NCBI GenBank assembly: GCA_021778515.1
Contig: JAJYCJ010000002.1
Span: 1,542 to 65,541 of the forward strand
DNA from: Acidobacteriota bacterium
GTDB taxonomy: Bacteria > Acidobacteriota > UBA4820 > DSQY01
DNA length: 64,000 nt
Direction of reading: 5' to 3'
The stretch's first letter is position 1, and each line of letters opens with the position of its first letter. Position numbers and translations under genes: made by a program. This document shows, piece by piece, positions 1 to 59,633 of the stretch. The notes beneath the pieces are model-generated. The model worked only from the letters and a program-made list of their open reading frames with translations. It made no database searches and was not told the origin of the DNA.

Positions 1-1036
1 CGCCCTTGACCGTGATGGACTGGGCGAGCATGGAGCCGTCGGCGCGCGTAAGCCCCTGGACCTTGACCTTCATACCGGTCGAAAGGGAATTGCCGGACAT
101 CATCTGGCCCTTCCGGGTGATCTGCGTGGCACCGTTCATCACCACGTTGGTGCGCGTGCCGCTCTTGTTCATCGTGAAGCCGGATACATTGCCCGAGGAG
201 TCGTGCATGACACTCTGGATGGAGCCGTTGTCCATCATGCCGTTGGCCATCACGTGGCCGAAGACGGCTGCATACACGCCGTTGCTCACGATGCCACCGA
301 AGGCGACGTAGGCGCCGACCTGGAGGAGCTGGGTGTCGCTGACGGTGGTGCCCTCTTTGACCATGCCACCGCCGCCCATGCCTCCACCGGAGCCACTACC
401 ACTGCCGGAGCCGCTTCCACTGCCGGAGCCGCCTCCCATCCCGCCGCCGCCGCCCATGCCACCGCTACCCATCATGCCTCCGGAGCCCATCCCGCCGGAC
501 AGGTTTCCACCCATGCCGCTGCCCATGTTGCTGGAGTCCATGCCATCAAAGAGGGCCTGCGAAGCGTTGATGGCGTAGATTCCGTCCACCGTGACGGTCT
601 GCGGGTTGCCCTGGGAGTCGTTCTGAATCGCCGTCACCTGGCCCTGAATCATGAAGGTCAGGCCCCGGTAGAGCGACGTGAGAGTAGGAGTGCCGCTGCT
701 GTTGGTTTCGAAGGCCGTGACCATGTCTCCCACCTGGAAATCGGCGGGCGTCAGCGTCTGCAGATTTCCGGAGGCGTCCTCACCCACGTAGACGACCTGG
801 GAACCCAGGACGAGTTGCGCCCCCTGGATGGTGACGCTCGTGCCGTCCATGGCCGTGATGGGACCGGCGAAGTAGGCCATTCCCTCGGGCGTCCCTGTCG
901 TCTGAGCGCTGGCGGGCAGAGCCACCGCAGCCACCAACGCGGCGGTCAGCACGGCGCACAGCCAGGCGGTGGCCCGCACGGGCCGGTGAGTGTGGGTCTC
1001 CATGGGTTCCCCCTGCCGAGCCTGTCTACTATTCAT
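1..1036 (-). CDS. secreted DUF5666-like beta-rich protein with Met/Gly/Ser-rich linker (C-terminus lies beyond window start)
   Basis: Absent from the ORF track because it runs off the window edge. Manual minus-strand translation gives MNSRQARQGEPMETHTHRPVRATAWLCAVLTAALVAAVALPASAQ (signal peptide, AxA site), then ...GPITAMDGTSVTIQGAQLVLG.... A linker GSGMGGNLSGGMGSGGMMGSGGMGGGGGMGGGSGSGSGSGSGSGSGGGMGGGGM lies at about nt 370-540, followed by ...TGMKVKVQGLTRADGSMLAQSITVKG. RBS GAAAGGAG (1053-1046) precedes ATG 1036 / GTG 1039; alternative ATG at 1003. The DUF5666 call is from memory of the pattern and needs an HMM check. Confidence 0.6.
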   Translation of the reverse strand, partial: MNSRQARQGEPMETHTHRPVRATAWLCAVLTAALVAAVALPASAQTTGTPEGMAYFAGPITAMDGTSVTIQGAQLVLGSQVVYVGEDASGNLQTLTPADFQVGDMVTAFETNSSGTPTLTSLYRGLTFMIQGQVTAIQNDSQGNPQTVTVDGIYAINASQALFDGMDSSNMGSGMGGNLSGGMGSGGMMGSGGMGGGGGMGGGSGSGSGSGSGSGSGGGMGGGGMVKEGTTVSDTQLLQVGAYVAFGGIVSNGVYAAVFGHVMANGMMDNGSIQSVMHDSSGNVSGFTMNKSGTRTNVVMNGATQITRKGQMMSGNSLSTGMKVKVQGLTRADGSMLAQSITVKG

Positions 1037-1141
1037 CACGATGCGCTCCTTTCTGAGTACTTCTCTCCACGATCTTTCTTCGCAAACATCCGTATTCTCA
1101 GTCCTCTAAGCTTTTCAAGGCCCATCGGCCGCGGGTTATCT

Positions 1142-1157
1142 TGCAACCTCCGTGCCA
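1142..1157 (-). promoter_or_regulatory. sigma54 -24/-12 promoter candidate for the Met/Gly-rich secreted protein gene
   Basis: Minus strand reads TGGCAC-GGAGG-TTGCA, a full match to TGGCAC-N5-TTGCW. It lies in the 1037-1185 intergenic gap, about 100 nt upstream of the start codon. An NtrC-type activator gene is 1.2 kb away. Confidence 0.6.
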
Positions 1158-1185
1158 CCATCCCTGCCTTGGCCGCCCCCCATGC

Positions 1186-1623
1186 TCAGAAGTAGACGGG
1201 CCAGAATGCGGAGGGGTTCAGTGGATCTTCCACGACCACCTGACCCTTGAGGTGTTCCATCCCGCAGTGCATGGCGAAATGTCCCGCTCGCCTCGGCGTA
1301 AATCTCACATCCGTGATCCCGAAAGGCTTCAGCTTAGTGCTGATGTGCAAGCCGTCCACCACGAGCCTCCGCGTGCAGGCCGAGTCGCTGGGGCGCCAGA
1401 AGCGCAGGTCCGCGGGACGCCCCACGACGATTTCGACGGTGGCGGGCGAGTAGGTCCCCTCCACCGCGATGTTACGGACTTGGGCCCTTCCCGCCCCGCC
1501 CCAGGGCAAGAGCGCCGCCGACAAGACAACCAAGACTATGCACCCTATCACGACGGCCACTTCCCAGCCGTTCGAGGTCGTTTCCTTTTTTGAAAAACAG
1601 AGCTGATTGGGTTTTTGTTCCAT
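1186..1623 (-). CDS. membrane-anchored cupredoxin-like domain protein (paralog 2)
   Basis: ORF 1186..1701. Preferred start is ATG 1623, preceded by GGAGGAGG. TM helix WEVAVVIGCIVLVVLSAALL is followed by a beta-rich domain ending GHFAMHCGMEHLKGQVVV (Cys/His/Met cluster). Clear paralog of the upstream gene. Confidence 0.65.
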   Translation of the reverse strand: MEQKPNQLCFSKKETTSNGWEVAVVIGCIVLVVLSAALLPWGGAGRAQVRNIAVEGTYSPATVEIVVGRPADLRFWRPSDSACTRRLVVDGLHISTKLKPFGITDVRFTPRRAGHFAMHCGMEHLKGQVVVEDPLNPSAFWPVYF

Positions 1624-1716
1624 GCCCGCCTCCTCCATGGTCCCTGCCGCCCCTTGTTCAAGGCGCGTCTTCCAGTCACCTGCCGCAAGGCGCCGCGGCA
1701 CGAACCAATGCGCCGA

Positions 1717-2133
1717 TCAAGTTCCCGCCCAGATCACTCCCTTCAGGCAACCCATGCGGCAGTGAAACGGATACCCGCCCGGCGTGAGGGGGTCAACGAC
1801 GATCCCGGTGGACTGGTCCAGCTTCAGGCTTCGGTCGATGCCCCAATGGGTCAGAACGACACCCCTCGTACAGAGTCCGCCCTCCCGCCGCACGAATCGC
1901 AGCTCCACCGGCTGTCCCGTCTTCACGTGCAGGACGGCTGGGTGAAACCCTTTGGCGTCCATGGTGATGGTCACGACCGGCAAGGGGTGCACCTGATTCT
2001 TATGATCGAGGTAGATGGTGAAGATGATGGCGGCCACCATGGCGGTAAGGCTCACCGCCATGACCACCAGGGCCTGCCCGCCGGTCAGCATGACCGCGGG
2101 AATCAGTTCGTCCTCTTTCCCATTGGCCGCCAT
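1717..2133 (-). CDS. membrane-anchored cupredoxin-like domain protein (paralog 1)
   Basis: ORF 1717..2139 begins with GTG. ATG 2133 has AAGGAGG 5 nt upstream. TM helix ALVVMAVSLTAMVAAIIFTIYL is followed by a beta domain ...PVELRFVRREGGLCTRGVVL...GGYPFHCRMGCLKGVIW. Confidence 0.65.
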   Translation of the reverse strand: MAANGKEDELIPAVMLTGGQALVVMAVSLTAMVAAIIFTIYLDHKNQVHPLPVVTITMDAKGFHPAVLHVKTGQPVELRFVRREGGLCTRGVVLTHWGIDRSLKLDQSTGIVVDPLTPGGYPFHCRMGCLKGVIWAGT

Positions 2134-2180
2134 GAACACCTCCTTGCCCCGAGGCCAGACCCGTGAGGCGCCACCCTAAG

Positions 2181-2196
2181 AGCAAGCAGCGTGCCA
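2181..2196 (-). promoter_or_regulatory. sigma54 -24/-12 promoter candidate for the cupredoxin-like gene pair
   Basis: Minus strand reads TGGCAC-GCTGC-TTGCT (full consensus match), about 45 nt upstream of ATG 2133. An AT-rich near-palindrome at 2205-2221 lies immediately upstream. Confidence 0.65.
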
Positions 2197-2388
2197 CCCG
2201 CAACTGACTGTATATACGTCAATTAGCGTTTGTAGGCTGGTGGAATGTGAGCAGCGCTTCAAAGCCTTTTGAAGGATAGTCTCGAACGCAGCCGCACGGG
2301 CGAACCGGCCATTGCCCACGGGGATGCGCCGCCTACGATGGCCTTCGGGATGGCCAGCGCGGGTCTTGGGGGCTCGTCGCCAGGAAGT

Positions 2389-3720
2389 CTAGGAAAGGCC
2401 GTACTTCTTCATGCGGTAGATGAGGATGTGTCTGGGGATGCGAAGGGAGCGGGCCGCGGCGGACTGGTTCCCGTTGTGCTCCCTGAGAGCCTTCACGATG
2501 GCCTCGCGCTCCATTCCCCACAGGCCCTCCGCCGGCGTCTGCCTGTCGGTCTCCACGCCCCGCATCTCGGGCGGGAGCATCGTAGGGACGATGGCCTGGT
2601 CCGGGTAGAGAATAGCCAGGCGCTGGCACAGGCTCTGGAGCTCCCGAACATTTCCAGGCCATCGGTAGTTGCTGAGAATCGCCATGGCCCCGGGTTCGAG
2701 TTTGGGTTCGGTTCCACCATACTGCCGGCAGAAATGGGAGAAGAGAATCGCCACGTCCTCCATGCGCTCTCTGAGGGGGGGCACGCCAAGGGGAATCACG
2801 TTGAGGCGCCAGTAGAGGTCCTCGCGAAAAGCCCCCGCCTTCACCGCCCCCGACAGGTCCCGATGGGTTGCCGCCAGAATCCTTACGTCCACCGCCTTCG
2901 AGGCACGCGAACCGACCGGATCAACGACCCGCTCTTGAAGAACGCGGAGAATCTTGGCTTGGAGCGACAGGTCCATGTCGCCGATCTCGTCCAAGAAGAG
3001 AGTCCCGCCGTTGGCCTGAACGAACTTGCCGGGCTTGGTCTCGGTGGCTCCCGTGAAGGCGCCCCGCTCGTGCCCGAACAGCTCGCTCTCCAGGAGCTCC
3101 CTGGGCATGGCGGCGCAATTGATGGCCACGAAGGGCTTGCCCATCCTCGGAGAGAGGGAGTGAAGAGCCCTGGCTACCAACTCCTTTCCGGTGCCGCTCT
3201 CCCCCGTGATCAGAACCGTGGCGTCCGTGGGAGCCACGCGGCGGATGGCATCGAGCAGCTTCTGGATGGGCGCGCTAGTACCCAGGATGGATTCAACGGG
3301 CCGCTTCTCCTGGAGGTTTTCTCTCAGGCGCCGGTTCTCCTTCCGGAGGTCCGAGACCCTCAGCGCTTTCTGGACCGTGAGCAGAAGAGTCTCCCGCTCG
3401 ACGGGTTTCGTGAGGTAGTCGGCGGCCCCGAGGCGCATGGCCTCCACCGCATCCTGAATGGTCCCGTAGGCCGTCATGACCACCACGGGGAGGTCGGGAT
3501 CCTTCTCGCGGATGGCCTTCAGCAGCTCGATGCCGTCCATGCCCGCCATGCGGACGTCGGTCACCACGAGATTGAAAGGCTCGGCGGACAAGCACTCCAG
3601 CGCCGACCGGCCGTCGCTGGCCTGGACGACGACGTGCTCCTGCCTCTCCAGGTGGTAGGAGAGTATTCGGCGAAGGTTGGGATCATCCTCGACGATCAGA
3701 ACTCGATTCGCGCGCGCCAT
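2389..3720 (-). CDS. sigma54-dependent Fis-family response regulator (NtrC/ZraR type: REC + AAA+ + HTH)
   Basis: MARANRVLIVEDDPNLRR... with DVRMAGMDG (REC), GESGTGKE Walker A, the GAFTGA sigma54-contact loop, WPGNVREL, and a C-terminal HTH ...AAARSLRIPRHILIYRMKKYGL. The 849-aa track ORF is an out-of-frame upstream extension over the kinase gene. The real ATG is at 3720. Confidence 0.95.
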   Translation of the reverse strand: MARANRVLIVEDDPNLRRILSYHLERQEHVVVQASDGRSALECLSAEPFNLVVTDVRMAGMDGIELLKAIREKDPDLPVVVMTAYGTIQDAVEAMRLGAADYLTKPVERETLLLTVQKALRVSDLRKENRRLRENLQEKRPVESILGTSAPIQKLLDAIRRVAPTDATVLITGESGTGKELVARALHSLSPRMGKPFVAINCAAMPRELLESELFGHERGAFTGATETKPGKFVQANGGTLFLDEIGDMDLSLQAKILRVLQERVVDPVGSRASKAVDVRILAATHRDLSGAVKAGAFREDLYWRLNVIPLGVPPLRERMEDVAILFSHFCRQYGGTEPKLEPGAMAILSNYRWPGNVRELQSLCQRLAILYPDQAIVPTMLPPEMRGVETDRQTPAEGLWGMEREAIVKALREHNGNQSAAARSLRIPRHILIYRMKKYGLS

Positions 3721-3722
3721 GG

Positions 3723-4802
3723 CTACCCTTTCTTGGCCCGAGGCCCGGGGGCAGCAGCGTCCGGAGCCGATAGTCCCCTGCCGCTCTGCCGGAGCCAGAG
3801 CGCGAACCGGGCCCCGCCCTCGGGCCGGTTCTCGCCCCTCACCCAACCTCCGTGGGCCTCCGCGACCTGCCTCACCAGAGCGAGGCCGAGCCCGGTCCCG
3901 TCCTTCCTCTTGGTGAAGAAGGGCTCGAAGAGCCGGCCCTCTTCGCCCGGAGGTAGGCCAGAGCCTTCGTCTTCCACGGCGAAAAGGCAGCCCTCCCCGT
4001 CCAGCCAGGCGTCCATGCGCACCCGCCCGCCTTTTGCCGAGGCCTGGATGGCATTGCGCAGGAGGTTCGTGAGGGCCTGGTGGAGGCGGAAGGGATCCGC
4101 CCAGATCCGGCAGTCCGCCGGCACCCCTATGTCGACCCGCACTCCGCTGCCCTCTGCCAACGCCATGAGACTGTTGCGGCAGGCTTCGGCAATGTCCCTG
4201 GCTCCCAGCTCCTCGGGTTCCACCGTGATGGGGCGCCCCAGATCCAGAAACTCCTGCACCACGGCCTTGAGGCGGCCGACCTCGGCCATAAGAATGTCGA
4301 GAAAGGCCTTCTTGGGATGGCCCTCGGGATAGTCCTCGGCCAGGATCTCGGCCGCGCCCTGGATGGAGCCGAGGGGCGTGCGTATCTCGTGCGCGACGCC
4401 CGAGGCCAGGCGGCCTAGGGCGGCCTGCCGCTCGCTCCGCTCCAGCTGTTGGCGGAGCCGCTCGGCGTTCGACCGCTCGCGCTCGCGCCTGTCCACGAGG
4501 ACCCCCGTCAGAATACCCAGGCCGAAGTAGAAGGTGATCTCGATGAGGTCCTCGTTGGTCCAAATCGGGCCGTGGTACATAAGCGCCAGGGGCAGCGTGG
4601 CGGAGGCGATCACCAGGGCCACACCGAAGCCCCCGGCCAATCCAAACCAGAGCCCACCCAGGAGGATGGGCACGTAACAGAGGCGGCGATGAAGCAGGTG
4701 AATCCAGTGGGGCATCGGAAAGAGCATGTAATGGAGAGACAGCGTGAAGGCCGTCATCAGCACGAGGATGAGAACCCGAACCCACGATGCCCGCTTCTCC
4801 AT
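3723..4802 (-). CDS. sensor histidine kinase with membrane-embedded (about 4 TM) sensor and no periplasmic, PAS or HAMP domain
   Basis: H-box GVAHEIRTPLGSI, N-box LLRNAIQAS, G-boxes VEDEGSGL and GTGLGLAL. The N-terminal 130 aa are hydrophobic and contain LHYMLFPMPHWIHLLHRRLCYVPI. Start taken at MEKRASW (ATG 4802); the ORF is open to 4907. The stop abuts the regulator start. Confidence 0.9.
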   Translation of the reverse strand: MEKRASWVRVLILVLMTAFTLSLHYMLFPMPHWIHLLHRRLCYVPILLGGLWFGLAGGFGVALVIASATLPLALMYHGPIWTNEDLIEITFYFGLGILTGVLVDRRERERSNAERLRQQLERSERQAALGRLASGVAHEIRTPLGSIQGAAEILAEDYPEGHPKKAFLDILMAEVGRLKAVVQEFLDLGRPITVEPEELGARDIAEACRNSLMALAEGSGVRVDIGVPADCRIWADPFRLHQALTNLLRNAIQASAKGGRVRMDAWLDGEGCLFAVEDEGSGLPPGEEGRLFEPFFTKRKDGTGLGLALVRQVAEAHGGWVRGENRPEGGARFALWLRQSGRGLSAPDAAAPGPRAKKG

Positions 4803-5024
4803 TGCCTGCCCTCCGGCTCCGTTGGTGCAAGGCCTGGGCCAACGCGGAGCTTTCACCCGCAGCATGGCCTGCCACCACCTGAACACTATTAACCACATCG
4901 AGCGCATAATATTCTACAATTGGTGGTGTATGGTGCATGCTGTTTCCTGAAGGGAGGTCCTTGCAGTCTCGCCCCTGCTCCGCATACCGTTAGATAGGCC
5001 TCCGTGGGTAACCCCCCGCTCTCT

Positions 5025-5040
5025 TGGCACGCAACGTGCC
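5025..5040 (+). promoter_or_regulatory. sigma54 -24/-12 promoter candidate for the cusC...copA operon
   Basis: TGGCAC-GCAAC-GTGCC: the GG and GC dinucleotides are correctly spaced, with one mismatch in the -12 box. It lies 43 nt upstream of the cusC ATG. It is also a perfect palindrome GGCACG-caa-CGTGCC, so an operator is an alternative reading. Confidence 0.5.
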
Positions 5041-5082
5041 TAAGAGAAGCCACCGCCTGCCGGGCGGGCACCGAGAGGAGTC

Positions 5083-6423
5083 ATGATGAAGCCAATGGTT
5101 GCCGCAGTAGGGACCTTCGCCATGGTGGTGGCCGCCTTCGTCTGTGCTGCCCAGGCGCCGGAGGCGCCCCCCCAGGACCCCATGACGACTTTGGTGGAGA
5201 CGGCCGTCGCCAACAATCCGGCTCTCGCGGCCCAGCGCCAGAAGGTGGCGGCGGCCCTCGATCGCCTCCCGCAGGCCAAGGCCCTTCCGGACCCCACCGC
5301 CGACCTGGAACTCATGATGTTGTCGGTCAACCATTTCAATGCGGGCGACGCGCTCAGCAAAGGGGTCTCCATCGGCGTCACGCAGGCGCTGCCCTATCCG
5401 GGCAAGCGCAAACTTCGGGAAGAGAAAGCGCGGCGCCAGGCGGCCGTGGCCCAGGCTGATCTACACGCCATGGAGAGCGAACTGCGGGGCGAGGTGAAGG
5501 CGGCGGCCTATCGTTACGCGTTGAACCTCCGCCTGCTGGACCTCAATGACCAGACCACAGACGCCTTGAAGGCCGCCGCCAGCGGGGCGATGGCGCTCTA
5601 CGCCTCCGGCGGAGGCACTCAGACCGACGTGCTTCTGGCCCAGACCGCCATCACCCAGGCCGACAAGGAGCACCTCGACCTGGTGCAGGAGCGAGAGATC
5701 GCCGCCGCTCGGCTGACAGACCTGCTGGGCGGGTCTCTCGACCGGTCACTCCTCCAACGGGTGGACATCCCCGAACCGGCCGAGGAGCCTTCCCTGGACG
5801 GTCTTCTGAACGAGCTGGACGGGGGAGCGCCGCGGATCGCCGCCTCACAGGCTCGGGAGCAGGTTGATGAGAGACAGGTGGCTATCGCCAAAAAGGACTT
5901 CGAGCCAGACTTCATCGTGGGTGGGCGTTACCGCCACAACGACGTGACCATGGGCGGGGGAGACTACCTCACGGCGATGGTCGGCATCACCCTGCCCTTT
6001 TTCCACCGAAAGGACCGCTACGGCCCCGCTCTCGATGAGGCCCTGGCCCAGCGGGAGGGAGCCAAGCAGGAGACGGCCGGCGTTATGAACCAGGTTCGCT
6101 ACGATCTCACTGAGGCCTGGCAGTCCGCTTCGCGGGATCGGGCCGTGTTCGAGCTTCTTCAGAACGGCCTCGTGATCCAGGCCAAACAGGCCTATGAATC
6201 GAGCCTGGCCAGCTATGGCGTAGGAAAGACGGACTTCACGACCCTTCTGAACTCGCTGGCTGGATACTACGGCGATCAGCGGCAGACCCTTGTGGCGCAG
6301 GCCGATTTTCAGATAGCCCTTGCTCGCATGGAAGCCATCCTGGGCGTGCCATCCCTCCATGCGGCGTCCCGCGAAGGCGCTGCCCGGCCCGCCGTCACCC
6401 CTCCAGACAAGAAGGAGCATTGA
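5083..6423 (+). CDS. cusC: TolC-family outer membrane efflux protein (CusC-like)
   Basis: Signal peptide MMKPMVAAVGTFAMVVAAFVCAAQA. Typical OEP N-terminus TLVETAVANNPALAAQRQKV and two OEP repeats. First gene of the RND cluster. RBS GAGAGGAG; ATG 5086 is equally possible. Confidence 0.88.
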   Translation: MMKPMVAAVGTFAMVVAAFVCAAQAPEAPPQDPMTTLVETAVANNPALAAQRQKVAAALDRLPQAKALPDPTADLELMMLSVNHFNAGDALSKGVSIGVTQALPYPGKRKLREEKARRQAAVAQADLHAMESELRGEVKAAAYRYALNLRLLDLNDQTTDALKAAASGAMALYASGGGTQTDVLLAQTAITQADKEHLDLVQEREIAAARLTDLLGGSLDRSLLQRVDIPEPAEEPSLDGLLNELDGGAPRIAASQAREQVDERQVAIAKKDFEPDFIVGGRYRHNDVTMGGGDYLTAMVGITLPFFHRKDRYGPALDEALAQREGAKQETAGVMNQVRYDLTEAWQSASRDRAVFELLQNGLVIQAKQAYESSLASYGVGKTDFTTLLNSLAGYYGDQRQTLVAQADFQIALARMEAILGVPSLHAASREGAARPAVTPPDKKEH

Positions 6424-6425
6424 GC

Positions 6426-6920
6426 ATGAAACCCCGCACGATACTGTTGTCCTTCACCGCCCTCGCCGCACTGGTCCTGCTCCTGCTTTCTCCCGCCGTC
6501 TTGGCGGACGGCCCAGGCAAGTCAGGGCTCAGCGCATCTTCGGGAGTCTCCTCCGCGAGGATCACCTACGTTTGTCCCATGCATCCAGAGGTCACCTCGG
6601 ACAAGCCCGGTCGCTGTCCGAAGTGTGGCATGTTCCTCGAGGCCACGCCGCGGGAGATTGCTTACTACACGTGTCCCATGGACGCCGACGTTCGGCAGGA
6701 CCACCCCGGCAAGTGTCCCCAGTGCGGGATGGCCCTTCAGAGGGAGACCGAGAAGGTCGCCTACATCTACGCCTGTCCCATGCACCCGGAGGTGCGCCAG
6801 GATCACCCGGGCAAGTGCCCGAAATGCGGCATGCTTCTGGAGGCGCGGGCCGTTGCGCCCGCATCAGGACGGTCCGCCGTGACGGCCGTTCCCGCTGCCA
6901 ACTCAGGCCACTCTCACTGA
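6426..6920 (+). CDS. secreted protein with three tandem heavy-metal-binding domains (HMBD, CPMHPE...PGKCPKCGM type)
   Basis: Signal peptide MKPRTILLSFTALAALVLLLLSPAVLA. Three modules: YVCPMHPEVTSDKPGRCPKCGMFL, YTCPMDADVRQDHPGKCPQCGMAL and YACPMHPEVRQDHPGKCPKCGMLL. C-terminal tail ends NSGHSH. RBS GAAGGAG lies 8 nt before ATG 6426 (the track ORF starts at TTG 6420). Confidence 0.85.
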   Translation: MKPRTILLSFTALAALVLLLLSPAVLADGPGKSGLSASSGVSSARITYVCPMHPEVTSDKPGRCPKCGMFLEATPREIAYYTCPMDADVRQDHPGKCPQCGMALQRETEKVAYIYACPMHPEVRQDHPGKCPKCGMLLEARAVAPASGRSAVTAVPAANSGHSH

Positions 6921-6990
6921 AGTGTTGCGGGGCGCGATCTCGTTCCATGGCGATCGCCGGCCCGCTGTCCGCAAAACTGAGGAGAAGAGA

Positions 6991-8787
6991 ATGCGTCCCT
7001 CCCGTCGTCTGAAGAGTGCATGCCTGGGCGTCCTTTCCGTGATGGTCCTTCTCGTGGTTCTATCGGCGTGCTCCGTCAGCGGGAAGGCGCAGGAAGCGCC
7101 GCTGTACCACTGCCCCATGCATCCCCAGGTCACTTCCGACAAACCCGGAGACTGCCCCATCTGCGGCATGCGGCTCGTGCGCGTGAAGCCGAACCCGGCC
7201 CCCGGGCAGACCGCCCGACCGGAACCAACGGCGGCCTCTCGGTCACCGCAGGCCGCCTCCGCCGACCCTGGCGTCGCGCCCACTCAGGCCACCACGACTT
7301 TGCCGCCCCCACCCAAGACCAAGACCATGTGGCGCTCCACCATGAATCCCGACGAGGTGAGCGACCACCCCGGCAAGGACTCCATGGGCATGGAAATGGT
7401 GCCCTTCACGGTCAGCGAGCCGGCACCCGCCGAAAGCACCGGGGCTTCGCCACCGGCCTCCTCCTCCACTTCGCCGCCCAAGACCAAGACCATGTGGCGC
7501 TCCACCATGAACCCCGGCGAGGTCAGCGACCACCCCGGCAAGGACTCCATGGGTATGGACATGGTGCCCTTCACGGTCAGCGAGCCGGCACCCGCCGAAA
7601 CCACCGGGGCTTCGCCACCGGCCTCCTCCTCCGCTTCGCCGCCCAAGACCAAGACCATGTGGCGCTCCACCATGAACCCCGGCGAGGTCAGCGACCACCC
7701 CGGCAAGGACTCCATGGGCATGGACATGGTGCCCTTCACCGTGACCGAATCATCCACCCCAACGCCCAAGGGACTGGCGGCCGTTTCGGTGACGGGTGAA
7801 GACGCCAAGCGCATGGGGCTGACTTACGGAACGGTCCAAGAGCGGGACCTGCGCCGCGACGTGCGCACCGCGGCGCGGATCGTGCCCGACGAGACGCGCC
7901 TTTACCGTGTCAACACGAAGGTGGGCGGCTGGGTCGAGAAGCTCTACGTCAACACCACGGGGCAGGCCGTCCGCCGGGGCCAGCCGCTCCTTTCCATCTA
8001 CAGCCCCGACCTGCTGGCCTCGGAGCAGGAGCTGCTCTCCGCCCTGAGCGCCGCCAAGCAGCTCGCCCAGAGTCCCTACAGCCAAGTGTCCCAGGGCGGT
8101 CAGGCGCTGGTAGACGCCGCCGTGCGGCGCCTCAGGCTCTGGGATATCAGCCAGGCCCAGATCGAGCGGATCGAGAAGACGGGGCAGGTGGAAAAGGACG
8201 TGACTCTCTACGCACCGGCATCCGGGTACGTTACGGACAAGACGGTGCTTCCCGGACAGCGCATCACCCCCGGCGATCCCCTCATGGTCGTGGCCGATCT
8301 CTCGACGGTGTGGGCCGTGGCCGAACTCTACGAATCGGACCTCCCCTACGTCAAGGTGGGCATGCCCGCCAAGGTGACTCTCCCCTACTGGCCTGGCAAG
8401 GTTTTCAAGGGGCGCGTCCGCCTCCTCGACCCCTTCCTCGATCCCACCACTCGGACGCTGAAGGCCCGCTTGGTGATCCCCAACCCGGGGATGGTCCTCA
8501 AACCCGGCATGTACGGCGATGCCCACCTGGAATACGACCTCGGGGTGCGGACCGCCGTTCCCGACTCGGCGATCCTGCCGGCGGGAGAGCACAACTACGC
8601 CTTCGTGGCCGGTTCCGACGGCACCCTCACCCCCGTCGAGGTGACCCTCGGGCCGCGCAGCGGTGGCTACTTCGAAGTGTTCTCGGGCCTCACCCCGGGC
8701 CAGCGCGTCGTTACGTCAGCCAACTTCCTGGTGGATTCGGAATCCTCCCTCAAGGCCGCACTTCAGGCCATCGCTACCGGGAAGTGA
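6991..8787 (+). CDS. cusB: efflux RND periplasmic adaptor (CusB-like) lipoprotein with one N-terminal HMBD and three Met-rich modules
   Basis: ATG 6991 follows GGAGAAGAGA. Lipobox VLSAC. HMBD YHCPMHPQVTSDKPGDCPICGMRL. Three copies of KTKTMWRSTMNP(D/G)EVSDHPGKDSMGM(E/D)MVPFTV. MFP core ...LYAPASGYVTDKTVLPGQRITPGDPLMVVADLSTVWAVAELYESD.... Confidence 0.9.
   Translation: MRPSRRLKSACLGVLSVMVLLVVLSACSVSGKAQEAPLYHCPMHPQVTSDKPGDCPICGMRLVRVKPNPAPGQTARPEPTAASRSPQAASADPGVAPTQATTTLPPPPKTKTMWRSTMNPDEVSDHPGKDSMGMEMVPFTVSEPAPAESTGASPPASSSTSPPKTKTMWRSTMNPGEVSDHPGKDSMGMDMVPFTVSEPAPAETTGASPPASSSASPPKTKTMWRSTMNPGEVSDHPGKDSMGMDMVPFTVTESSTPTPKGLAAVSVTGEDAKRMGLTYGTVQERDLRRDVRTAARIVPDETRLYRVNTKVGGWVEKLYVNTTGQAVRRGQPLLSIYSPDLLASEQELLSALSAAKQLAQSPYSQVSQGGQALVDAAVRRLRLWDISQAQIERIEKTGQVEKDVTLYAPASGYVTDKTVLPGQRITPGDPLMVVADLSTVWAVAELYESDLPYVKVGMPAKVTLPYWPGKVFKGRVRLLDPFLDPTTRTLKARLVIPNPGMVLKPGMYGDAHLEYDLGVRTAVPDSAILPAGEHNYAFVAGSDGTLTPVEVTLGPRSGGYFEVFSGLTPGQRVVTSANFLVDSESSLKAALQAIATGK
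7312..7742 (+). repeat. in-frame tandem repeat, 165-bp unit, about 2.6 copies, inside cusB
   Basis: Units start at 7312, 7477 and 7642 (CCCAAGACCAAGACCATGTGGCGCTCCACCATGAA...). Copies 2 and 3 are almost identical, and copy 1 differs at a handful of positions. Each encodes a 55-aa module PPKTKTMWRSTMNPxEVSDHPGKDSMGMxMVPFTVSEPAPAExTGASPPASSSxS. Confidence 0.9.
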
Positions 8788-8791
8788 CAGC

Positions 8792-11700
8792 ATGATCCGC
8801 AAGCTCATCACCTTCTCGGCGCACAACAAGTTTCTGGTGCTGGCCCTTGTGGCGGCGGCCCTGGCCTACGCCGCTTACGCCCTCCACCACATCCGCCTGG
8901 ACGCCATCCCCGACCTATCCGACACCCAGGTCATCGTGTACACGCGCTGGGACCGGAGCCCGGACGTCATCGAGGACCAGGTCACCTATCCCATCATCGC
9001 CGCCCTGTTGGGGACGCCCCGGGTGAAGGCCATCCGGGGCTTCTCGGATTTCGGCTTCTCCTACGTCTACGTGGTCTTCGACGACGGCACCGACATCTAT
9101 TGGGCCCGCAGCCGGGTGCTGGAGTACCTCTCCAAGATCCAGGGAAGCCTGCCGGAGGGCGTGCATCCGGAGCTGGGGCCCGACGCCACCGGCGTCGGCT
9201 GGGTCTATCAGTACGTCCTGGTTGACCACAGCCACGAGCACAACCTCGCCCAGCTGCGCTCCTATCAGGACTGGACCCTCCGCTACGCCCTCGAGAGCGT
9301 ACCCGGCGTGGCCGAGGTGGCGAGCATCGGCGGCTTCCAGAAGCAGTACCAGGTGACCATCGACCCCATCCGCCTTCAGGCCTACAACCTCTCGATCCTG
9401 GACGTGGCCAGGGCCATCCGGCAGAGCAACAACGAGGTGGGCGGCAGGCTCATCGAATTCGCCGGCACCGAGTTCATGGTGCGCGGCGAAGGATACCTCC
9501 AATCCACCTCCGACCTCGACAAGGTCGTGGTGAAGGCGACACCTGGCGGAACACCCGTGCTTCTGAAGGACGTGGCCACGGTCGCTCTCGGTCCTCAGAT
9601 GCGCCGCGGAATCCTGGACTGGAACGGCGACGGCGACGCCGTGGGCGGCATCGTGGTCATGCGCCAGGGCGAGAACGCCCTCAACGTCATCGACCGGGTC
9701 AAGGCGAAGCTCGCCTCCATGAAGGCCTCGCTCCCCGCGGGCGTCACCATCGAGCCGGCCTACGACCGCTCCGAGCTCATCCAGCGCTCCATCGACAACC
9801 TCAAGGAAGAGCTGCTTCTGGAGATGCTCGTCGTGAGCCTGGTGATCCTCTTCTTCCTCTGGCACTTCCCGTCGGCCATGGTGCCCATCATCACGATTCC
9901 CATCAGCGTACTCCTGGCCTTCATCCCCATGTATTTCATGGGCATCACCTCCAACATCATGAGCCTCTCCGGCATCGCCATCTCCATCGGCGTGCTCGTG
10001 GACGGGGCCATCGTGGAGGTGGAGAACGCCTACAAGAAGCTGGAGCTGTGGCAGGAGGGCGGCCGCGTGGGCGACTTCCACGCCGTGCGCCTGGAGGCCC
10101 TGCTGGAGGTGGGGCCCTCGGTCTTCTTCTCCCTCGCCGTCATCGCCGTGGCCTTTCTGCCCATCTTCACCCTGACGGGTCAGGAGGGGCGGCTCTTCAA
10201 GCCGCTCGCTTACACGAAGACGCTCGCCATCGCCATCGCGGCGCTTCTCGCCGTGACCCTCGATCCGGCCGTGCGCATGCTCTTCGCGCGGATGGACCGC
10301 TTCAAGGTAAAGCCCCGCTTCATCGGCAGGACGCTCGATGCACTCTTCATCGGCACCTACTACCCCGAGGAGAAGCACCCCGTGAGCCGGGTCCTCTTCT
10401 GGCTCTACGAGAAGCCGTGCCGCTTCGTCCTGCGCCACCCCAAGAGCATCATCGCGACGGCCCTGCTTCTCGTCGCCATCTCCGTTCCCATTTACTTCCG
10501 GCTCGGCCAGGAGTTCATGCCTCCCCTGGACGAGGGCACGATCCTCTACATGCCGACCACCCTGCCGGGCATCTCGGTGACGCAGGCTCAGGAGCTGCTC
10601 CAGACCGAGGACCGCATCCTCAAATCCTTCCCCGAGGTCGTCTCGGTCTTCGGAAAGGCCGGCCGGGCGGACACCTCCACCGATCCAGCGCCTTTCTCCA
10701 TGATGGAGACGACGGTGGTACTCAAGCCCGATTCCCAGTGGGGGGCCAAGCCCCGCTGGTACTCCTCCTGGGCGCCTCACTGGCTCAAGGGGGTGCTGAG
10801 CCACGTCTGGTCCGATCACATCTCCTACAGCGAGCTCATTGATCAGATGGACCGGGCCATCCAGATCCCCGGAAACACCAACGCCTGGACCATGCCCATC
10901 CGGGGCCGCATCGACATGCTCACGACGGGGGTTCGCACCCCCATCGGGATCAAGATTCTCGGGGACAACCTGGATGAGATTCAGCGCATCGGCGAGCAGA
11001 TCCAGCGGGTCCTGCAGAATGTCCCCGGAACCCGCAGCGTCTTCGCCGAGCGCACCGGCGGGGGCTACTACGTGGACTTCGTCCCGAAGCGCGACGCGCT
11101 GGCTCGCTACGGGCTCACCATACAGGACCTGCAGGACGTGATCATGACGGCGGTGGGAGGCGAGAACATCACGACGACCGTCGAGGGGCGCGCGCGCTAC
11201 TCGGTGAACCTGCGCTACCCCCGCGACCTGCGCGCCAACCTCGACCAGCTCCGGAGGATCCTCGTCAGCACCCCCACCGGCGTGCAGGTTCCCATGGAGG
11301 AGCTGGCCGACGTTCGGACGGACCTGGGGCCCTCCATGATCCGGGACGAGAACGGCATGCTGGCGGGTTACGTCTACGTGGATCTGACCGGCCGGGACGT
11401 GGGCTCTTACGTGGCGGCCGCGCAGAAGGCCGTGGAGAAGGCGGTGCACCTGCCCACGGGCTACTCCCTCATCTGGAGCGGACAGTGGGAGAACATGATC
11501 AGCGTGCGGCAGCGCCTGAAAGTCGTGGTACCCATCACGCTGTTGCTCATCTTCCTGCTCCTCTACATGAACACCAAGTCCCCATTCAAGGCGATGGTGG
11601 TGTTGCTGGCGGTCCCCTTCTCGGTGGTGGGCGCCATCTGGCTTCTCTACTTCTTGCACTACAACGTCTCCATCGCCACGTGGGTGGGGATGATCGCGCT

Positions 11701-12097
11701 CATGGGGCTGGACGCGGAGACGGGCGTCTTCATGCTCCTATTTCTGGATCTCTCCTACGACGAGGCCTTGAAGGCGGGACGCCTGCGCTCGCTGGGCGAC
11801 CTCCACGATGCCATCGTCCACGGCGCGGTGAAGCGCATCCGCCCCAAGATGATGACCGTCACCGCGGCGGCCATGGGCCTCATGCCCATCATGTGGTCCC
11901 AGGGCACGGGCGCGGACATGATGAAGCGCGTGGCGGCGCCCATGGTGGGCGGACTCTTCACCTCGTTCCTGATGGAACTTCTCGTCTATCCCGCCATTTA
12001 TCTGCTCTGGAAGAGGCGCACCTTGCCCGCTCAGGAGGGCCCGTCCCAGGGGTCGGACCACCAGGGGGCAAGTGGCCGCATCCTGGGTGGCATGTGA
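8792..12097 (+). CDS. cusA: CusA/CzcA-family heavy-metal efflux RND transporter
   Basis: [53 protein letters not shown]... is a typical HME-RND N-terminus. About 1100 aa with 12 TM segments. ATG 8792 lies 5 nt after the cusB stop. The track ORF start (8663) is an upstream extension. Confidence 0.93.
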
Positions 12098-12120
12098 CGA
12101 GAGCGCCGCGGAGGCAACGC

Positions 12121-14793
12121 ATGAAGAGGCAAGCGGAGACAGAAGCACACCGGGCCGCCGACGCGCCCGCCGACACGCGGGACCCCGTCTGCGGCATGAC
12201 GGTGGACCCGGAGCACCCTCGCGGCGGAACCGCCGCCTACGGCGGCAAGACCTACGGCTTCTGCAATCCGATGTGCCGGGAAAGGTTTCTCGCAGAGCCC
12301 GAGAAGTACCTCGCGCCCACCTACAGGCCCATGGGGATGCCGATGATGCCGGTGATGATGAAGCACCAGCCGGCAAAGGCGGCCGAGCAGCCCAGGGACC
12401 CGGTGTGCGGCATGACGGTCTCCCCTGACGGGGCCGCGGGAAGCTTCGAGCAGGATGGCACCACCTATTGGTTCTGCTCGGCGCACTGCCTGGAGAAATT
12501 CAAGGCGGATCCGCGCGCCCACCTCGGCGAAAGGCCAGCTCGAAGCGTGGCAAAGGTGGCACCGGGAGGCACCCGCTACACATGTCCCATGGATCCAGAA
12601 GTGGTACAGGACCATCCGGGGGCCTGCCCCAAGTGCGGCATGGCCCTCGAGCCCATGGACATCACGGCGCCCGCGACTGCCACCGTCTTCACCTGCCCCA
12701 TGCACCCCCAAATCCGGCAGGACCATCCGGGCGCGTGCCCCAAGTGCGGCATGGCTCTTGAGGCGCAGACGGTCACGGTCGAGGAGGAGAATCCGGAATA
12801 CAAGGACATGAAGCGGCGCTTCTGGGCGGCGCTAGCCCTGACCGTGCCTCTCTTTGTCGTGGCCCTCCCTCACATGGTTCCAGCGCTCACCATGCAGCAC
12901 CTCATCTCCTCCGGGACGGCGGGATGGCTGGAATTCATTCTCTCCACGCCCGTGGTCTTCTGGGCCGGCTGGGTTCTGCTCAAGCGGGGGTGGGATTCTC
13001 TGGTCCACCGCAGCCCGAACATGTTCACCCTCATCGGCATGGGCGTCGGCGTCTCCTACGTCTACAGCGCAGTAGCCCTTCTCTTCCCGCAGGTTTTCCC
13101 GCCCGCCTTCCGCGATGAGAGCGGGCAGATCGCCACGTACTTCGACGCGGCCGCCATGATCACGGTGCTGGTACTCCTGGGCCAGGTAATGGAACTCAAG
13201 GCCAGGAGCCGCACATCGAGCGCCATCAAGGCGCTGCTCGGCCTGGCGCCGAAGACGGCGAGGATGGTCAGGTCCGACGGATCCGATTCGGACGTCCCCC
13301 TTGATCAGGTCCGGCCCGGCGACACCTTGCGAGTCCGTCCCGGCGAGAGGGTGCCCGTGGACGGCCTCGTGCTCGATGGTTCCAGCTCCGTGGACGAATC
13401 CATGATGAGCGGCGAACCCATTCCCGTCGAGAAGGGCCCCGGCGACCCGGTCACCGGCGGAACGGTCAACGCTACCGGCGGTTTTACCATGCGGGCCGAG
13501 CGCGTGGGCGGCGACACCCTGCTGGCCCAGATCGTCCGCATGGTGGGCGAGGCCCAGCGAAGCCGCGCGCCCATCCAGCGCATCGCCGACGCCGTGGCCT
13601 CCTATTTCGTGCCGGCCGTGGTCCTCGCGGCGGTGGTCACTTTCATCGTCTGGGCCCTGTTGGGTCCACAGCCCGCACTGGCCTACGCGCTCGTCAACGC
13701 GGTGGCGGTCCTGATGATCGCCTGCCCGTGCGCCCTCGGCCTCGCCACCCCCATGTCCATCATGGTGGCCACCGGCCGGGGCGCCCGCGCGGGGATTCTC
13801 ATCAAGAACGCCGAAGCCCTGGAAACCCTTCAGAAGGTAGACACGCTGGTGGTGGACAAGACGGGCACCCTGACCGAAGGCAGACCCAGGTTGAGGGAGG
13901 TCGTGGCCCTCGACGGCCTCTCAGAAAACGAACTCCTCGGCCTCGCCGCAAGCCTCGAACGAGCCAGCGAGCATCCTCTCGCGGCGGCCATCGTCGCCGG
14001 CGCCGAAGAACGAGCAGTCCCGCTCCAGAAGGTCGAAGAGTTCCAATCCGTCACGGGCAAGGGAGTGACCGGAAAGATCGCGAACCGCGCCGTTGCCCTC
14101 GGCAATGCCCGCTGGCTGCAATCCATGAACATCGGGGAGGGGATCCTCGCCGAGAGGGCGGAAGGTCTTCGAAGACTCGGCAGGACCGTCATGTTCGTGG
14201 TCCTTGGAGGACGACTGGCCGGCCTGATCACCGTCTCGGACCCCGTCAAACGTACCACCGCCGAGGCGGTGAGGTCTTTGAAGGAACAAGGAATCCGCAT
14301 CATCATGCTGACGGGCGACAACCGGGCCACGGCGCAGGCCGTGGCCGACGAGCTGGGCATCGAGGAGGTCGAGGCGGACATCCTGCCCGACCAGAAGAGC
14401 GCCGTGGTCAAGCGTCTCCAGAGCGAGGGCCGCTTCGTGGCCATGGCCGGAGACGGGGTGAACGACGCTCCGGCGCTCGCTCAGGCCCAGGTGGGCATCG
14501 CCATGGGTTCGGGCACGGACGTGGCCATGGAAAGCGCGGGCATCACCCTTCTGAAGGGTGATTTGCGCGGCATTGCGATGGCCTACAGGCTCAGCCGGAA
14601 GACCATGGCCAACATCAAGCAGAACCTCTTCTTCGCCTTCGTGTACAACACGATCGGCATTCCCATCGCCGCGGGCATACTGTACCCATTCTTCGGTCTC
14701 TTGCTGAGCCCCGTGATCGCGAGCGCGGCCATGAGTTTCAGCTCCGTGTCGGTCATCAGCAACGCCCTACGTCTGCGCAGGGTGGTTCTATGA
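12121..14793 (+). CDS. copA: Cu(I)/Ag(I)-translocating P1B-type ATPase with 2 YHS/TRASH-like + 2 HMBD N-terminal modules
   Basis: N-terminus carries [10 protein letters not shown]...[18 protein letters not shown]...[32 protein letters not shown] and [24 protein letters not shown]. Core motifs: TM CPC ([12 protein letters not shown]), DKTGT (VVDKTGTLT), [10 protein letters not shown] (FVYNTIGIP) and MSFSS. ATG 12121; the track ORF start at 11485 overlaps cusA. Confidence 0.95.
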
Positions 14794-15611
14794 AGAAGAA
14801 ACGCGTCGCGGGCCTCGTCGTGGCGTTCGTGATTCTGGCCGCCACGGCCAGGTGGTGGCCCGACTGGTACTGGACCTATCGCACCCGCAACCCCGTTCGC
14901 GCGGGGGCCAATCTGGCGGCCAGGAACGGGTGCCTCGCCTGTCACGCCCCGCTCCAGCGCGACCAGCACGACGACCCGGGAAGCCGGTGGGGAAGCGTCC
15001 CCTCCTTCTACCGCGGGAACCTGATGATGTACGTCAACAACCCCAAGGAGGTCGAAAACTTCATCAGCTTCGGGCGGCCAGAACCTCCACCCAAGAAGAC
15101 GGCCGCCCCCCCGCCATCCAGCCCGGCCGAACCGGGCACGAAGGCGGCCCCGCTCTTTCACATGCCCGCCTTCAAGGGACGCCTGAGTCCCTCGGAGATA
15201 CACGATCTGGCGCTCTACGTCGTGGCGGCCGACGGCTACCAGGTTCCCGACTCGGGTACCGTGGCAGACGGCTTCACTCTCTCGCGCAAGTACGGCTGCG
15301 AGTCCTGCCACGGGATCGGAGGCTCGGGCGGGGTGCCCAACCCGCGCTCCTTTACCCTCACCGTCCCCGGATGGATCGGGGCGGACTTCTCAAGCCTGGT
15401 CCAGAACCAAGAGGAATTCCGGGAGTGGGTAATGGACGGCCGATCCAAACGCATGGCTCGGAATCCCGCCGCCTCCTTCTTCCTAGAGCGTGCGAACCTC
15501 TACATGCCGAGCTTCCGTAACGCCCTCAAACCCAAGGATGTGGACGCCCTGTGGGCCTACGTCCAGTTTCTGAGAGTTCAGCCGCATGGGCGCGCCGGCG
15601 CGCCCAAATGA
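14790..15611 (+). CDS. membrane-anchored diheme c-type cytochrome
   Basis: Two CxxCH motifs (NGCLACH, YGCESCH), each followed by a distal Met motif (FHMPAF, LYMPSF). N-terminal anchor [15 protein letters not shown]. Its ATG overlaps the copA stop (ATGA). Confidence 0.8.
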
Positions 15612-15666
15612 CCCAGGAATACGCGTCTCTCCCAGGTTGTTAGTTTCTCTCAAATGGAGGTGAACA

Positions 15667-16065: not shown

Positions 16066-16088
16066 TTCGAATCGCCGGTGGATCAGGG

Positions 16089-16120
16089 GGGCCTCCCGGT
16101 TTCTGCGGGGGGCCCTTTTT
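16089..16120 (+). terminator. rho-independent terminator closing the cus/cop operon
   Basis: GGGCCTCCCG - GTTTCTG - CGGGGGGCCC forms a 10-bp stem (one G-U pair) followed by TTTTT, 24 nt after the stop of the 15667 gene. Confidence 0.6.
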
Positions 16121-16269
16121 GCGTGGCGAGACCGGGGGACTGGTTCCGCTCCTCCGTTTCCAGCGGTAACACCTTGGCTCCTGATCGGACCAGCCCGGGG
16201 GAACAAATAGAGCCGGTCTGCCGCATCCGCGCATTACCCCATCAGCGTTTCAACGAAGTGCTGCCAACA

Positions 16270-16285: not shown

Positions 16286-16309
16286 AGTCCAGTGGACAGG
16301 AGGCGGCCC

Positions 16310-59632: not shown

Positions 59633-59633
59633 C

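Follow-up and report, generated by a model that had tools for sequence, protein, structure and literature searches.

Control of metal-resistance genes through sigma-54 has well-described precedents. In Myxococcus xanthus, the two-component pair CorSR is an NtrC-type, sigma-54 copper system with four putative sigma-54 promoters; experiments have shown that a Cupredoxin_1 protein, CuoA, CopA and corS depend on copper and CorSR for their expression, the same operon also encodes a cbb3-type cytochrome c, and copA is under both CorR/sigma-54 and the extracytoplasmic function (ECF) sigma factor CorE (PMC3707914). ZraR drives the divergent sigma-54 promoters of zraP and zraSR, and the site of the activator GlrR reads TGTC-N10-GACA (PMC4987338). 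Here we investigated a copper/silver cluster of 13 genes at one end of a 64-kb stretch of contig JAJYCJ010000002.1 from an Acidobacteriota bacterium; this whole stretch is called the window throughout. The cluster encodes an NtrC-type response regulator of the bacterial enhancer-binding protein (bEBP) class and a sensor histidine kinase, together with a CusCBA-type pump of the resistance-nodulation-division (RND) family, a CopA-type ATPase, cupredoxin-like proteins and a Met-rich secreted protein. We propose that it constitutes a Cu(I)/Ag(I) resistance regulon under a sigma-54-dependent two-component system, a reading to which we give a probability of roughly 70%. A preliminary description of the same DNA had called such control unusual, measuring it against CusRS and CueR of Escherichia coli. 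That judgement was overstated and its benchmark wrong, since CorSR is itself an NtrC-type sigma-54 copper system (PMC3707914) and ZraSR is a further precedent (PMC4987338). The description had itself cited ZraSR/zraP as an instance of sigma-54 control of metal genes.

In the proposed circuit, a kinase without a periplasmic domain would sense the signal, most likely Cu(I)/Ag(I) judging by the content of the regulon, through a sensor of three predicted membrane helices and a short amphipathic helix with near-invariant His24 and His35 and mostly conserved His38 and Cys42. The kinase would phosphorylate the activator (receiver, AAA+ and helix-turn-helix (HTH) domains, with GAFTGA), which would bind 16-bp dyads of consensus TGTAGAATATTCTACA and remodel sigma-54 RNA polymerase at promoters of the -24/-12 type. 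Dyads at 4880-4918 would serve from between two back-to-back promoters. The promoter at 5025-5040 (+) is predicted to drive an 11-kb operon comprising cusC and the genes for an HMBD protein, cusB, cusA, copA, a cytochrome c and a DUF5818 protein. The promoter at 4841->4826 (-) is predicted to drive the kinase and regulator genes; since this operon has a sigma-54 site of its own, positive autoregulation is implied. Consensus promoters at 2196->2181 and 1157->1142, downstream of the regulator gene, would drive the cupredoxin pair and the Met-rich protein, and a fifth, weaker site at 16270-16285 may drive a small YHS protein.

Scanning the window for the sigma-54 consensus TGGCAC-N5-TTGCW with up to one mismatch gave five matches against 1.12 expected, a number reached in none of 100 shuffles. 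With a weight matrix, two sites scored 17 or above, about 30 times the chance level of 0.07 per window; chance levels for matrix scores were taken from dinucleotide-preserving simulations. The promoter-type sites of the cluster are as follows.

1157->1142, minus strand: predicted sigma-54 promoter of the Met-rich gene (site 2), TGGCACGGAGGTTGCA, exact consensus, score 18.9, ending 102 nt before GTG 1039/ATG 1036
2196->2181, minus strand: predicted sigma-54 promoter of the cupredoxin pair (site 1), TGGCACGCTGCTTGCT, exact consensus, score 18.9, ending 47 nt before ATG 2133
4841->4826, minus strand: predicted sigma-54 promoter of the kinase/regulator operon, TGGCCCAGGCCTTGCA, score 13.8, ending 23 nt before ATG 4802
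5025-5040, plus strand: predicted sigma-54 promoter of the cusC operon (site 3), TGGCACGCAACGTGCC, score 12.5, ending 42 nt before ATG 5083
16270-16285, plus strand: tentative candidate sigma-54 promoter of the YHS gene, intergenic, TGGCACGGTGTTTGAA, score 13.2, ending 24 nt before GTG 16310

Sites 1 to 3 had been named in the preliminary description as full or near-full matches serving the cluster, and their coordinates, strands, distances and places at the heads of operons are evident from the sequence itself. Sites 1 and 2 match the consensus fully; site 3 is a near match, with -15 (G for T) and -11 (C) as its sole mismatches, and like the kinase site it retains the GG, the spacing and the TGC. 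All three are conserved, as detailed below, and their number had to be raised to five by the sites before the kinase operon and the YHS gene, both of which rank within the six best matrix scores of the window. All five sites are intergenic, correctly oriented and end 23-102 nt before start codons. The matrix separates the three original sites: sites 1 and 2 stand far above expectation, but the score of site 3 lies within chance and is not significant alone, so that position and ortholog conservation must carry it. Before the genes internal to the predicted operons (cupredoxin B, regulator, HMBD, cusB, cusA, copA, cytochrome c and DUF5818), the best upstream score is at most 7.2, and it is 3.2 for the cupredoxin B gene.

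Site 3 is also a perfect 6-bp inverted repeat, GGCACG-CAA-CGTGCC, and its minus strand reads GG-N10-GC (AGGCACGTTGCGTGCC, score 9.3). We ascribe this palindromy to the mutual reverse complementarity of GCAC and GTGC and see in it no sign of a second promoter. The minus-strand reading was rejected as a kinase promoter in favour of the site that ends 23 nt before the kinase start, which scores higher and is conserved in position. A further strong match at 59951-59966 (+), TGGAACGGAGATTGCT, score 16.3, is intragenic in a radical-SAM open reading frame (ORF) at 59577-60650 (CNFRCRYCQNW) and was taken as chance or non-productive; non-productive intragenic sigma-54 sites have reportedly been mapped in E. 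coli.

Conservation was assessed in ortholog loci (designated L081 and so on) from Acidobacteriota metagenome-assembled genomes and from metagenomes. A protein search with the regulator returned an orthologous group of 58-92% identity, Acidobacteriota where named, below which identity falls to about 52% with Geobacter AtoC-like paralogs. Scanning metagenomes with an alignment of the kinase contributed 80 further loci, in every one of which the kinase is paired with a bEBP. Loci whose kinase is 49-83% identical are referred to as the close tier and those at 33-39% as the distant tier. Scanning genome contigs with the regulator yielded only NtrC paralogs of 40-50% identity, with no copper genes nearby and no orthologs among them; these loci (n = 80, 1.25 Mb) were reused as a negative control for the dyads described below. 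In the orthologs, whose regulators are 61-92% identical, the kinase and regulator genes run divergently from cusC-HMBD-cusB-cusA(-copA), and cupredoxin-like genes, a Met-rich gene or both lie downstream of the regulator. The cusC gene is usually divergent in the close tier, and the order kinase-regulator-cusC-cusB is frequent in the distant tier.

The promoter motifs are conserved within these diverging loci. In an anchored alignment, 11 distinct ortholog sequences upstream of the kinase share TGGC.C.....TTGC[AT] and a downstream Shine-Dalgarno sequence between unconserved flanks; the distance from the end of the motif to the start codon is 17-28 nt, or 22-28 nt when a single ortholog is set aside. 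Upstream of cusC, 11 distinct sequences share (T/C)GGCA(C)......TG(C/A), with TGA in two loci and again with unconserved flanks, 13-62 nt (mostly 39-62) before the gene. Most cusC promoters carry GTGC at -15 to -12, so that site 3 deviates from the consensus in the manner of its family. Before the Met-rich gene, the promoter reads TGGCACTCGGATTGCA in L081 and TGGCACCGAGGTTGCA in L083 and L096, 105-135 nt from the start and with diverged flanks, and in L088 a weak Cupredoxin_1 homolog is preceded, at 44 nt, by TGGCATTTCCCGTGCT. Conservation in orthologous loci, which the preliminary description had proposed to look for, is therefore found at 11 kinase, 11 cusC and three Met-rich-gene promoters, with L089/L100, discussed below, as the exception. 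In the tier at 49-50% identity that lacks cusC, the kinase promoter is missing. L085 gives no independent support for sites 1 and 2 because it is 98.6% identical to window positions 1-3223.

Several side observations concern these loci. L085 diverges after the 3' 830 bp of the regulator gene, and its regulator is 71% identical overall, a pattern suggesting that recombination took place with a breakpoint within the AAA+ domain. Loci otherwise about 88% identical differ by an indel that comprises the cupredoxin pair and its promoter (window 1070-2398 versus L081 11323-11752), and in L081, L083 and L096 the regulator is followed directly by the Met-rich gene. In a distant branch (L120, L131, L144, L156, L157 and L164), promoter-like sites before cusC read TGGCAC-N5-TTGTA or GTGTA, with T for the nearly invariant -12 C, conserved across differing sequences.

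An alignment of the kinase-cusC spacers revealed one conserved AT-rich block, made up of two 16-bp dyads of the consensus given above. A shared element across loci, for which the preliminary description had proposed to search, thus emerged from the spacer alignment. The pair is present in the kinase-cusC spacer of all close orthologs, with a centre spacing of 23 bp in the window and 19-23 bp (mostly 23) across loci. A first 14-nt matrix (13 sites) was dropped as too weak beyond the kinase-cusC spacer. With the final 16-nt matrix, about 0.4 sites scoring 12 or above are expected by chance per 64 kb; the dyads at 4880-4895 and 4903-4918 are training sites and the other dyads in the window are untrained. 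Distances below are counted from predicted transcription start sites, which would lie at about 1131 (-), 2170 (-), 4816 (-), 5051 (+) and 16296 (+).

1023-1038: enhancer-like dyad over the Met-rich start codon, TGATGAATAGTAGACA (minus strand), score 17.0, at about +101
1054-1069: weaker dyad in the Met-rich 5' untranslated region (UTR), TGGAGAGAAGTACTCA, score 9.9, at about +70 and 31 bp from the 1023-1038 dyad
2270-2285: weak dyad near the cupredoxin promoter, TGAAGGATAGTCTCGA, score 10.8, at about -107
4880-4895: dyad 1, between the divergent promoters, TGAACACTATTAACCA, score 18.9
4903-4918: dyad 2, CGCATAATATTCTACA (minus strand TGTAGAATATTATGCG), score 23.2
16419-16434: tentative dyad inside the YHS gene, TGCACATTTTTCAGCA, score 12.6, at about +130

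Dyads 1 and 2 stand at about -71 and -94 from the predicted kinase start and at about -163 and -140 from that of cusC. The score of the YHS-gene dyad, 12.6 with the base composition of the window as background, falls below 12 with a uniform background. In L081, L083 and L096 (9-21 kb), both dyad positions of the Met-rich 5' UTR recur untrained with scores of 13.0-19.5, the equivalent of 1054-1069 scoring 13.0-18.3, and the only matches of at least 9.5 in these loci are the spacer pair and the two 5'-UTR positions. The 1054-1069 dyad sits in the best-conserved block of the Met-rich leader alignment. The block of L088 aligned to 2270-2285 reads TGCGGACTTTTCTTCA, scores 16.2 and lies upstream of the promoter of the cupredoxin-like gene, and L092 has an untrained match in front of its DUF5666 gene. 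Because its dyads occupy the 5' UTR and overlap the start codon, the Met-rich gene appears to carry an enhancer downstream of its promoter, an arrangement that would fit its long, strongly conserved leader; an Rfam scan of positions 1-17000 returned no relevant match for this leader. A comparable downstream case is that of the 3' ftr enhancers of Caulobacter flagellar genes.

The dyad also extends into the distant tier. Just 3' of the regulator gene, untrained dyads read TGGAGAATATTCTGCA in L120/L131, TGTAGGATATTCTACA in L164 and TGCAGAATATTCTGCA in L169, and the dyad often lies about 70 nt upstream of a TGGCAC-N5-TTGTA/GTGTA site that is itself 30-50 nt before cusC. With a uniform background, 27 matches of 16 or above occur in 0.37 Mb at 21 of 61 distant-family loci; the same matrix finds none at this threshold in the 1.25 Mb around 80 unrelated NtrC paralogs. 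By these comparisons the dyad is specific to this kinase/regulator family. Together with the HTH segment NQ(S/T)AAAR.L.IPRH.L(I/L)YR, which is conserved in close and distant regulators, this specificity is our strongest argument that this regulator family, and not another bEBP, reads the dyads, and the dyad is likely to be the activator binding site. A repeat search of positions 1000-5200 returned coding-sequence coincidences only.

The bEBP and its kinase had been described as the sole regulators of the cluster, and Pfam assignments agree: the regulator matches Sigma54_activat (E = 1.5e-71), Response_reg (2.2e-32) and HTH_8 (4.7e-11), carries GAFTGA and the Walker A sequence GESGTGKE, and is the only bEBP in the window. 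It lies under every NCBIfam equivalog cut-off, those of NtrC and AtoC included. Among NCBIfam models the kinase comes closest to AtoS and ZraS, with matches confined to the catalytic core. An AlphaFold2 (AF2) model of the kinase from a 70-sequence alignment (mean predicted confidence, pLDDT, 92.5) has helices at 2-24, 32-41, 43-74 and 84-157, the last continuing straight into HisKA; neither a periplasmic nor a HAMP domain is seen in the model or by Pfam. Among 70 homologs down to 33% identity, Tyr43 and Pro45 are invariant, His24 and Glu88 are conserved in 69 each, His35 in 66, Cys42 in 53 and His38 in 51. From the content of the regulon we infer that the conserved His and Cys residues would bind Cu(I)/Ag(I).

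The genes of the cluster, with families assigned by Pfam (regulator and kinase also against NCBIfam equivalog cut-offs), are as follows.

1-1039, minus strand: Met/Gly-rich secreted DUF5666 protein (Pfam DUF5666 E = 1e-10; signal peptide, GMGGG/GSGS runs)
1186-1623, minus strand: membrane-anchored cupredoxin-like protein B, 145 aa (Cupredoxin_1 E = 3e-11; start codon checked)
1717-2133, minus strand: membrane-anchored cupredoxin-like protein A, 138 aa (Cupredoxin_1 E = 7e-15)
2389-3720, minus strand: NtrC-type response regulator/bEBP, 443 aa (Response_reg, Sigma54_activat, AAA_lid_14 and HTH_8)
3723-4802, minus strand: sensor histidine kinase, 359 aa (Pfam HisKA and HATPase_c only)
5083-6423, plus strand: cusC-type outer-membrane factor (Pfam OEP E = 3e-41)
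6426-6920, plus strand: periplasmic triple-HMBD protein, in the cusF position (HMBD E = 3e-43, three stretches)
6991-8787, plus strand: cusB-type membrane fusion protein with an N-terminal HMBD (Pfam HlyD_D23 and HMBD)
8792-12097, plus strand: cusA-type RND pump, 1101 aa (ACR_tran on the identical gene in L093)
12121-14793, plus strand: copA-type P1B ATPase, 890 aa, with N-terminal YHS and HMBD (Pfam on the identical L093 gene; start checked)
14790-15611, plus strand: cytochrome c, cbb3 subunit III-like (Cytochrom_C and Cytochrome_CBB3; weak ccoP match)
15667-16065, plus strand: secreted DUF5818-like protein, last gene of the predicted cusC operon (DUF5818 E = 6e-4, under the curated cut-off)
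16310-16507, plus strand: YHS-domain protein, 65 aa (Pfam YHS E = 2e-10; GTG start preceded by GGAGG)

The Met-rich protein has 350 aa in the full contig; its last four codons fall outside the start of the window, the whole gene was seen in L093, and its start is GTG 1039 or ATG 1036. A terminator-like hairpin at 16098-16114 lies 3' of the DUF5818 gene, and the P0041 locus has a 62-aa YHS gene in the place that matches that of the window. A 282-aa gene convergent with the Met-rich gene is syntenic and was considered as a further member; it was left out of the regulon because no sigma-54 site precedes it (best score 3.3-4.6). The N-terminal part of CusB contains a Met/His-rich tandem repeat of 165 bp (55 aa) at 7312-7739, in 2.6 copies that match at 96% and include TMWRSTMNPGEVSDHPGKDSMGMDMVPF. 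On contigs L093, L094 and L095, which otherwise share 99.7-100% identity, CusB lengths of 598, 543 and 488 aa occur, successive lengths differing by a single repeat copy.

Other side observations concern the surroundings of the cluster and of its relatives. L093, L094 and L095 carry the cluster with a 100%-identical regulator, and their genes beyond the 282-aa gene (above about 14800 in locus coordinates) are wholly different: DAO/GtrA genes, pyrH-frr-ispDF, and aminotransferase/endonuclease V genes. These differing flanks suggest rearrangement, transfer or assembly chimeras. The right flank of pssA, psd, yceD, plsX and fabH is shared with the context of an ortholog at 61% identity. Downstream of the cluster in L081 (14503-16207) and L083 (13776-15474) stand genes of the MbnB/TglH/ChrH family (DUF692) and HvfC_N, preceded by an ORF of 102-103 aa, a cassette that resembles those for maturation of small metal-binding peptides; the matrix scan found no sigma-54 site upstream of these DUF692/HvfC_N genes. 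In L086/L087 (3713-6838), a regulator of the ortholog group adjoins the gene for a 1041-aa ankyrin-repeat protein, and in L090 (11524-18016) one adjoins DUF302, TetR and ABC exporter genes. L087 and L090 retain the dyad pair upstream of the kinase despite these unrelated neighbours.

The proposed regulon has to be set against several findings that weigh against it. The sigma-54 matrix is approximate, having been built from the published consensus without a curated site set, and the dyad matrix was hand-curated from alignments, its 27 sites all coming from kinase-cusC spacers. Scores of the cusC and kinase promoters are no higher than 12.5-13.8, and about two sites at this level are expected by chance in 64 kb. 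The ortholog L089/L100 lacks the kinase promoter motif, and its cusC motif is weak (CGGCACCCGACCTGCA, score 9.3). In the candidate YHS promoter, A replaces the nearly invariant -12 C, giving GA at -13/-12. The cupredoxin promoter has only its weak dyad, and an enhancer downstream of a promoter, as suggested for the Met-rich gene, is a rare arrangement. A regular-expression search for the RpoN box found none in the window or in any of 175 loci; as a general rule, an intact bEBP implies rpoN in the genome, where sigma-54 would then be encoded.

Among the alternatives, the one we take most seriously, although we consider it unlikely, is that sigma-54 is only one layer of control and that unrecognised sigma-70 or ECF promoters provide most expression of the efflux genes. 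This would parallel M. xanthus copA, for which dual control by CorR/sigma-54 and CorE is documented (PMC3707914). One ortholog context does have an ECF sigma gene nearby, and the long cusC operon contains gaps of 70 nt before cusB and 55 nt before the DUF5818 gene. Against additional promoters, no sigma-70-type match was found in any intergenic region of the cluster, with a scan consensus of the E. coli type that may not fit Acidobacteriota, and the sigma-54 motifs are the conserved elements of spacers that otherwise drift.

It is also improbable, in our estimation, that the promoters and the activator are as described and the signal is something other than Cu/Ag, the kinase being a general envelope-stress, zinc or redox sensor like ZraS of the ZraSR pair. 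The kinase has no metal-binding domain recognisable by Pfam, its resemblance to AtoS and ZraS is confined to the catalytic core, and the family members in L086/L087 and L090 adjoin unrelated genes. However, the predicted targets are nearly all of the Cu(I)/Ag(I) type (CusCBA with HMBD, CopA with YHS/HMBD, cupredoxins, YHS protein and Met-rich protein), the linkage to cusC is kept in both the close and the distant branches, and the sensor has its near-invariant His residues and, in 53 of 70 homologs, Cys42.

We judge it equally improbable that this regulator governs just the divergent cusC and kinase promoters, with the cupredoxin and Met-rich promoters being served by another bEBP or by looping from 4880-4918 and their nearby dyads being incidental. 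The untrained dyads at both 5'-UTR positions in L081, L083 and L096 speak against this, being the sole matches of at least 9.5 beyond the kinase-cusC pair, as do the dyad of score 16.2 upstream of the cupredoxin-like promoter of L088 and the one before the DUF5666 gene of L092; moreover, cupredoxin and Met-rich genes stay next to the regulator across orthologs. What can be said for such a split is that the dyad at the cupredoxin promoter scores just 10.8, that the Met-rich dyads lie downstream of the promoter and overlap conserved coding and ribosome-binding sequence, a possible cause of their conservation, that further bEBPs are encoded in the genome (in L094, one at a distance of about 6 kb), and that loci otherwise 88% identical differ by an indel of the cupredoxin pair. 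Finally, the idea that the motifs are chance matches in a GC-rich genome with no promoter function can be dismissed as very improbable: scores at the level of site 3 do arise about twice per 64 kb and the strong 59951 site is clearly intragenic, but the exact matches number two against 0.07 expected, and five intergenic, correctly oriented sites are position-conserved in diverged loci together with a family-specific dyad.

Sigma-54 control of the cluster by one bEBP, as the preliminary description had put it, is in our view a model well supported by sequence comparison. The conserved promoters and the family-specific dyad argue for it, and the genes without sites of their own would be reached by predicted co-transcription. 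Whether the wider picture holds in all its parts we regard as an even bet. It would comprise a widespread, uncharacterised family of sigma-54 Cu/Ag two-component systems, present in Acidobacteriota and, in distant form, in Geobacter/Desulfuromonadaceae-like and other metagenomic lineages, in which a membrane His/Cys cluster, HY..H..H-RR-L-C-Y-x-P, senses the metal, TGTAGAATATTCTACA is the operator, CusCBA is the ancestral target, and some enhancers lie downstream in a 5' UTR or over a start codon.

To our knowledge, metal regulation in Acidobacteriota, abundant bacteria of soils and sediments, is essentially unstudied. If the proposed regulon is correct, it would provide these and related uncultured lineages with a defined copper/silver efflux circuit of sensor, activator, operator and five promoters. 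The 16-bp operator combined with the -24/-12 signature could serve as a search tool for annotating the regulon in metagenomes, and the set of promoters and regulator might be turned into a biosensor or a metal-inducible switch that is tightly off without induction. Two questions are raised: how a kinase without a periplasmic domain senses periplasmic or membrane metal load, and whether a natural bEBP enhancer can act from inside a 5' UTR. In the searchable literature, whose coverage is incomplete, we found no description of this kinase type, of the operator or of sigma-54 control of cusCBA. ZniR and HmzR of Cupriavidus metallidurans may likewise be regulators of the sigma-54 type.

Compared with the known systems, the locus resembles CusRS/CueR-controlled resistance of E. 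coli in its effector genes only, the CusC/CusB/CusA pump and the CopA ATPase. The E. coli regulators are of the OmpR and MerR types and work with sigma-70, whereas the sole regulator here is a bEBP; in addition, a triple-HMBD protein replaces the CusF of cusCFBA, and pump and ATPase lie in one predicted operon. The candidate operator invites comparison with the enhancers of other bEBPs. The upstream activating sequence of NifA has the consensus TGT-N10-ACA. Like the NifA and GlrR types, the dyad found here spans 16 bp, has TGT...ACA ends and occurs twice close to a -24/-12 promoter; it differs in its core, AGAATATTCT, in its family specificity and in its place downstream of the promoter in one target.

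With ZraSR the locus has in common a metal-linked NtrC-type pair. ZraR acts on divergent sigma-54 promoters, that of its own operon and that of a periplasmic metal-binding protein (PMC4987338), and a back-to-back, autoregulated layout of this kind is predicted here at 4826-5040 with two dyads in between. The proteins are nevertheless distinct: the regulator reaches 394 bits where the ZraR cut-off is 760, and the kinase, matching over the catalytic core alone, reaches 182 where ZraS requires 479. A periplasmic sensor domain is present in ZraS. In ZraSR the chaperone ZraP is the target and Zn/Pb or envelope stress the signal, whereas an efflux pump and an ATPase are the predicted targets here, and zraP, which encodes a CpxP-like periplasmic chaperone, is absent among the 13 cluster genes.

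The closest functional precedent is M. xanthus CorSR, likewise an NtrC-type sigma-54 two-component system inside a copper cluster with several sigma-54 promoters and apparent autoregulation. That cluster also holds a Cupredoxin_1 protein (PF13473), a CopA P1B-ATPase and a cbb3 subunit III-like cytochrome c (PF13442). CorS, however, has a signal peptide, one transmembrane segment, a periplasmic sensor and a HAMP domain, none of which the present kinase has. The curA genes all run in one direction as a single operon, which includes a multicopper oxidase but no RND pump, whereas the present locus is divergent, with CusCBA as its main predicted target and no multicopper oxidase; and a dyad is proposed here where the operator of CorR is undefined. 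The current understanding of sigma-54 metal control is not overturned, the architecture being a variant of the CorSR/ZraSR type. Sigma-54 control of metal genes was already established by ZraSR and CorSR; what is new here is the kinase type, the proposed operator and the RND pump as predicted target.

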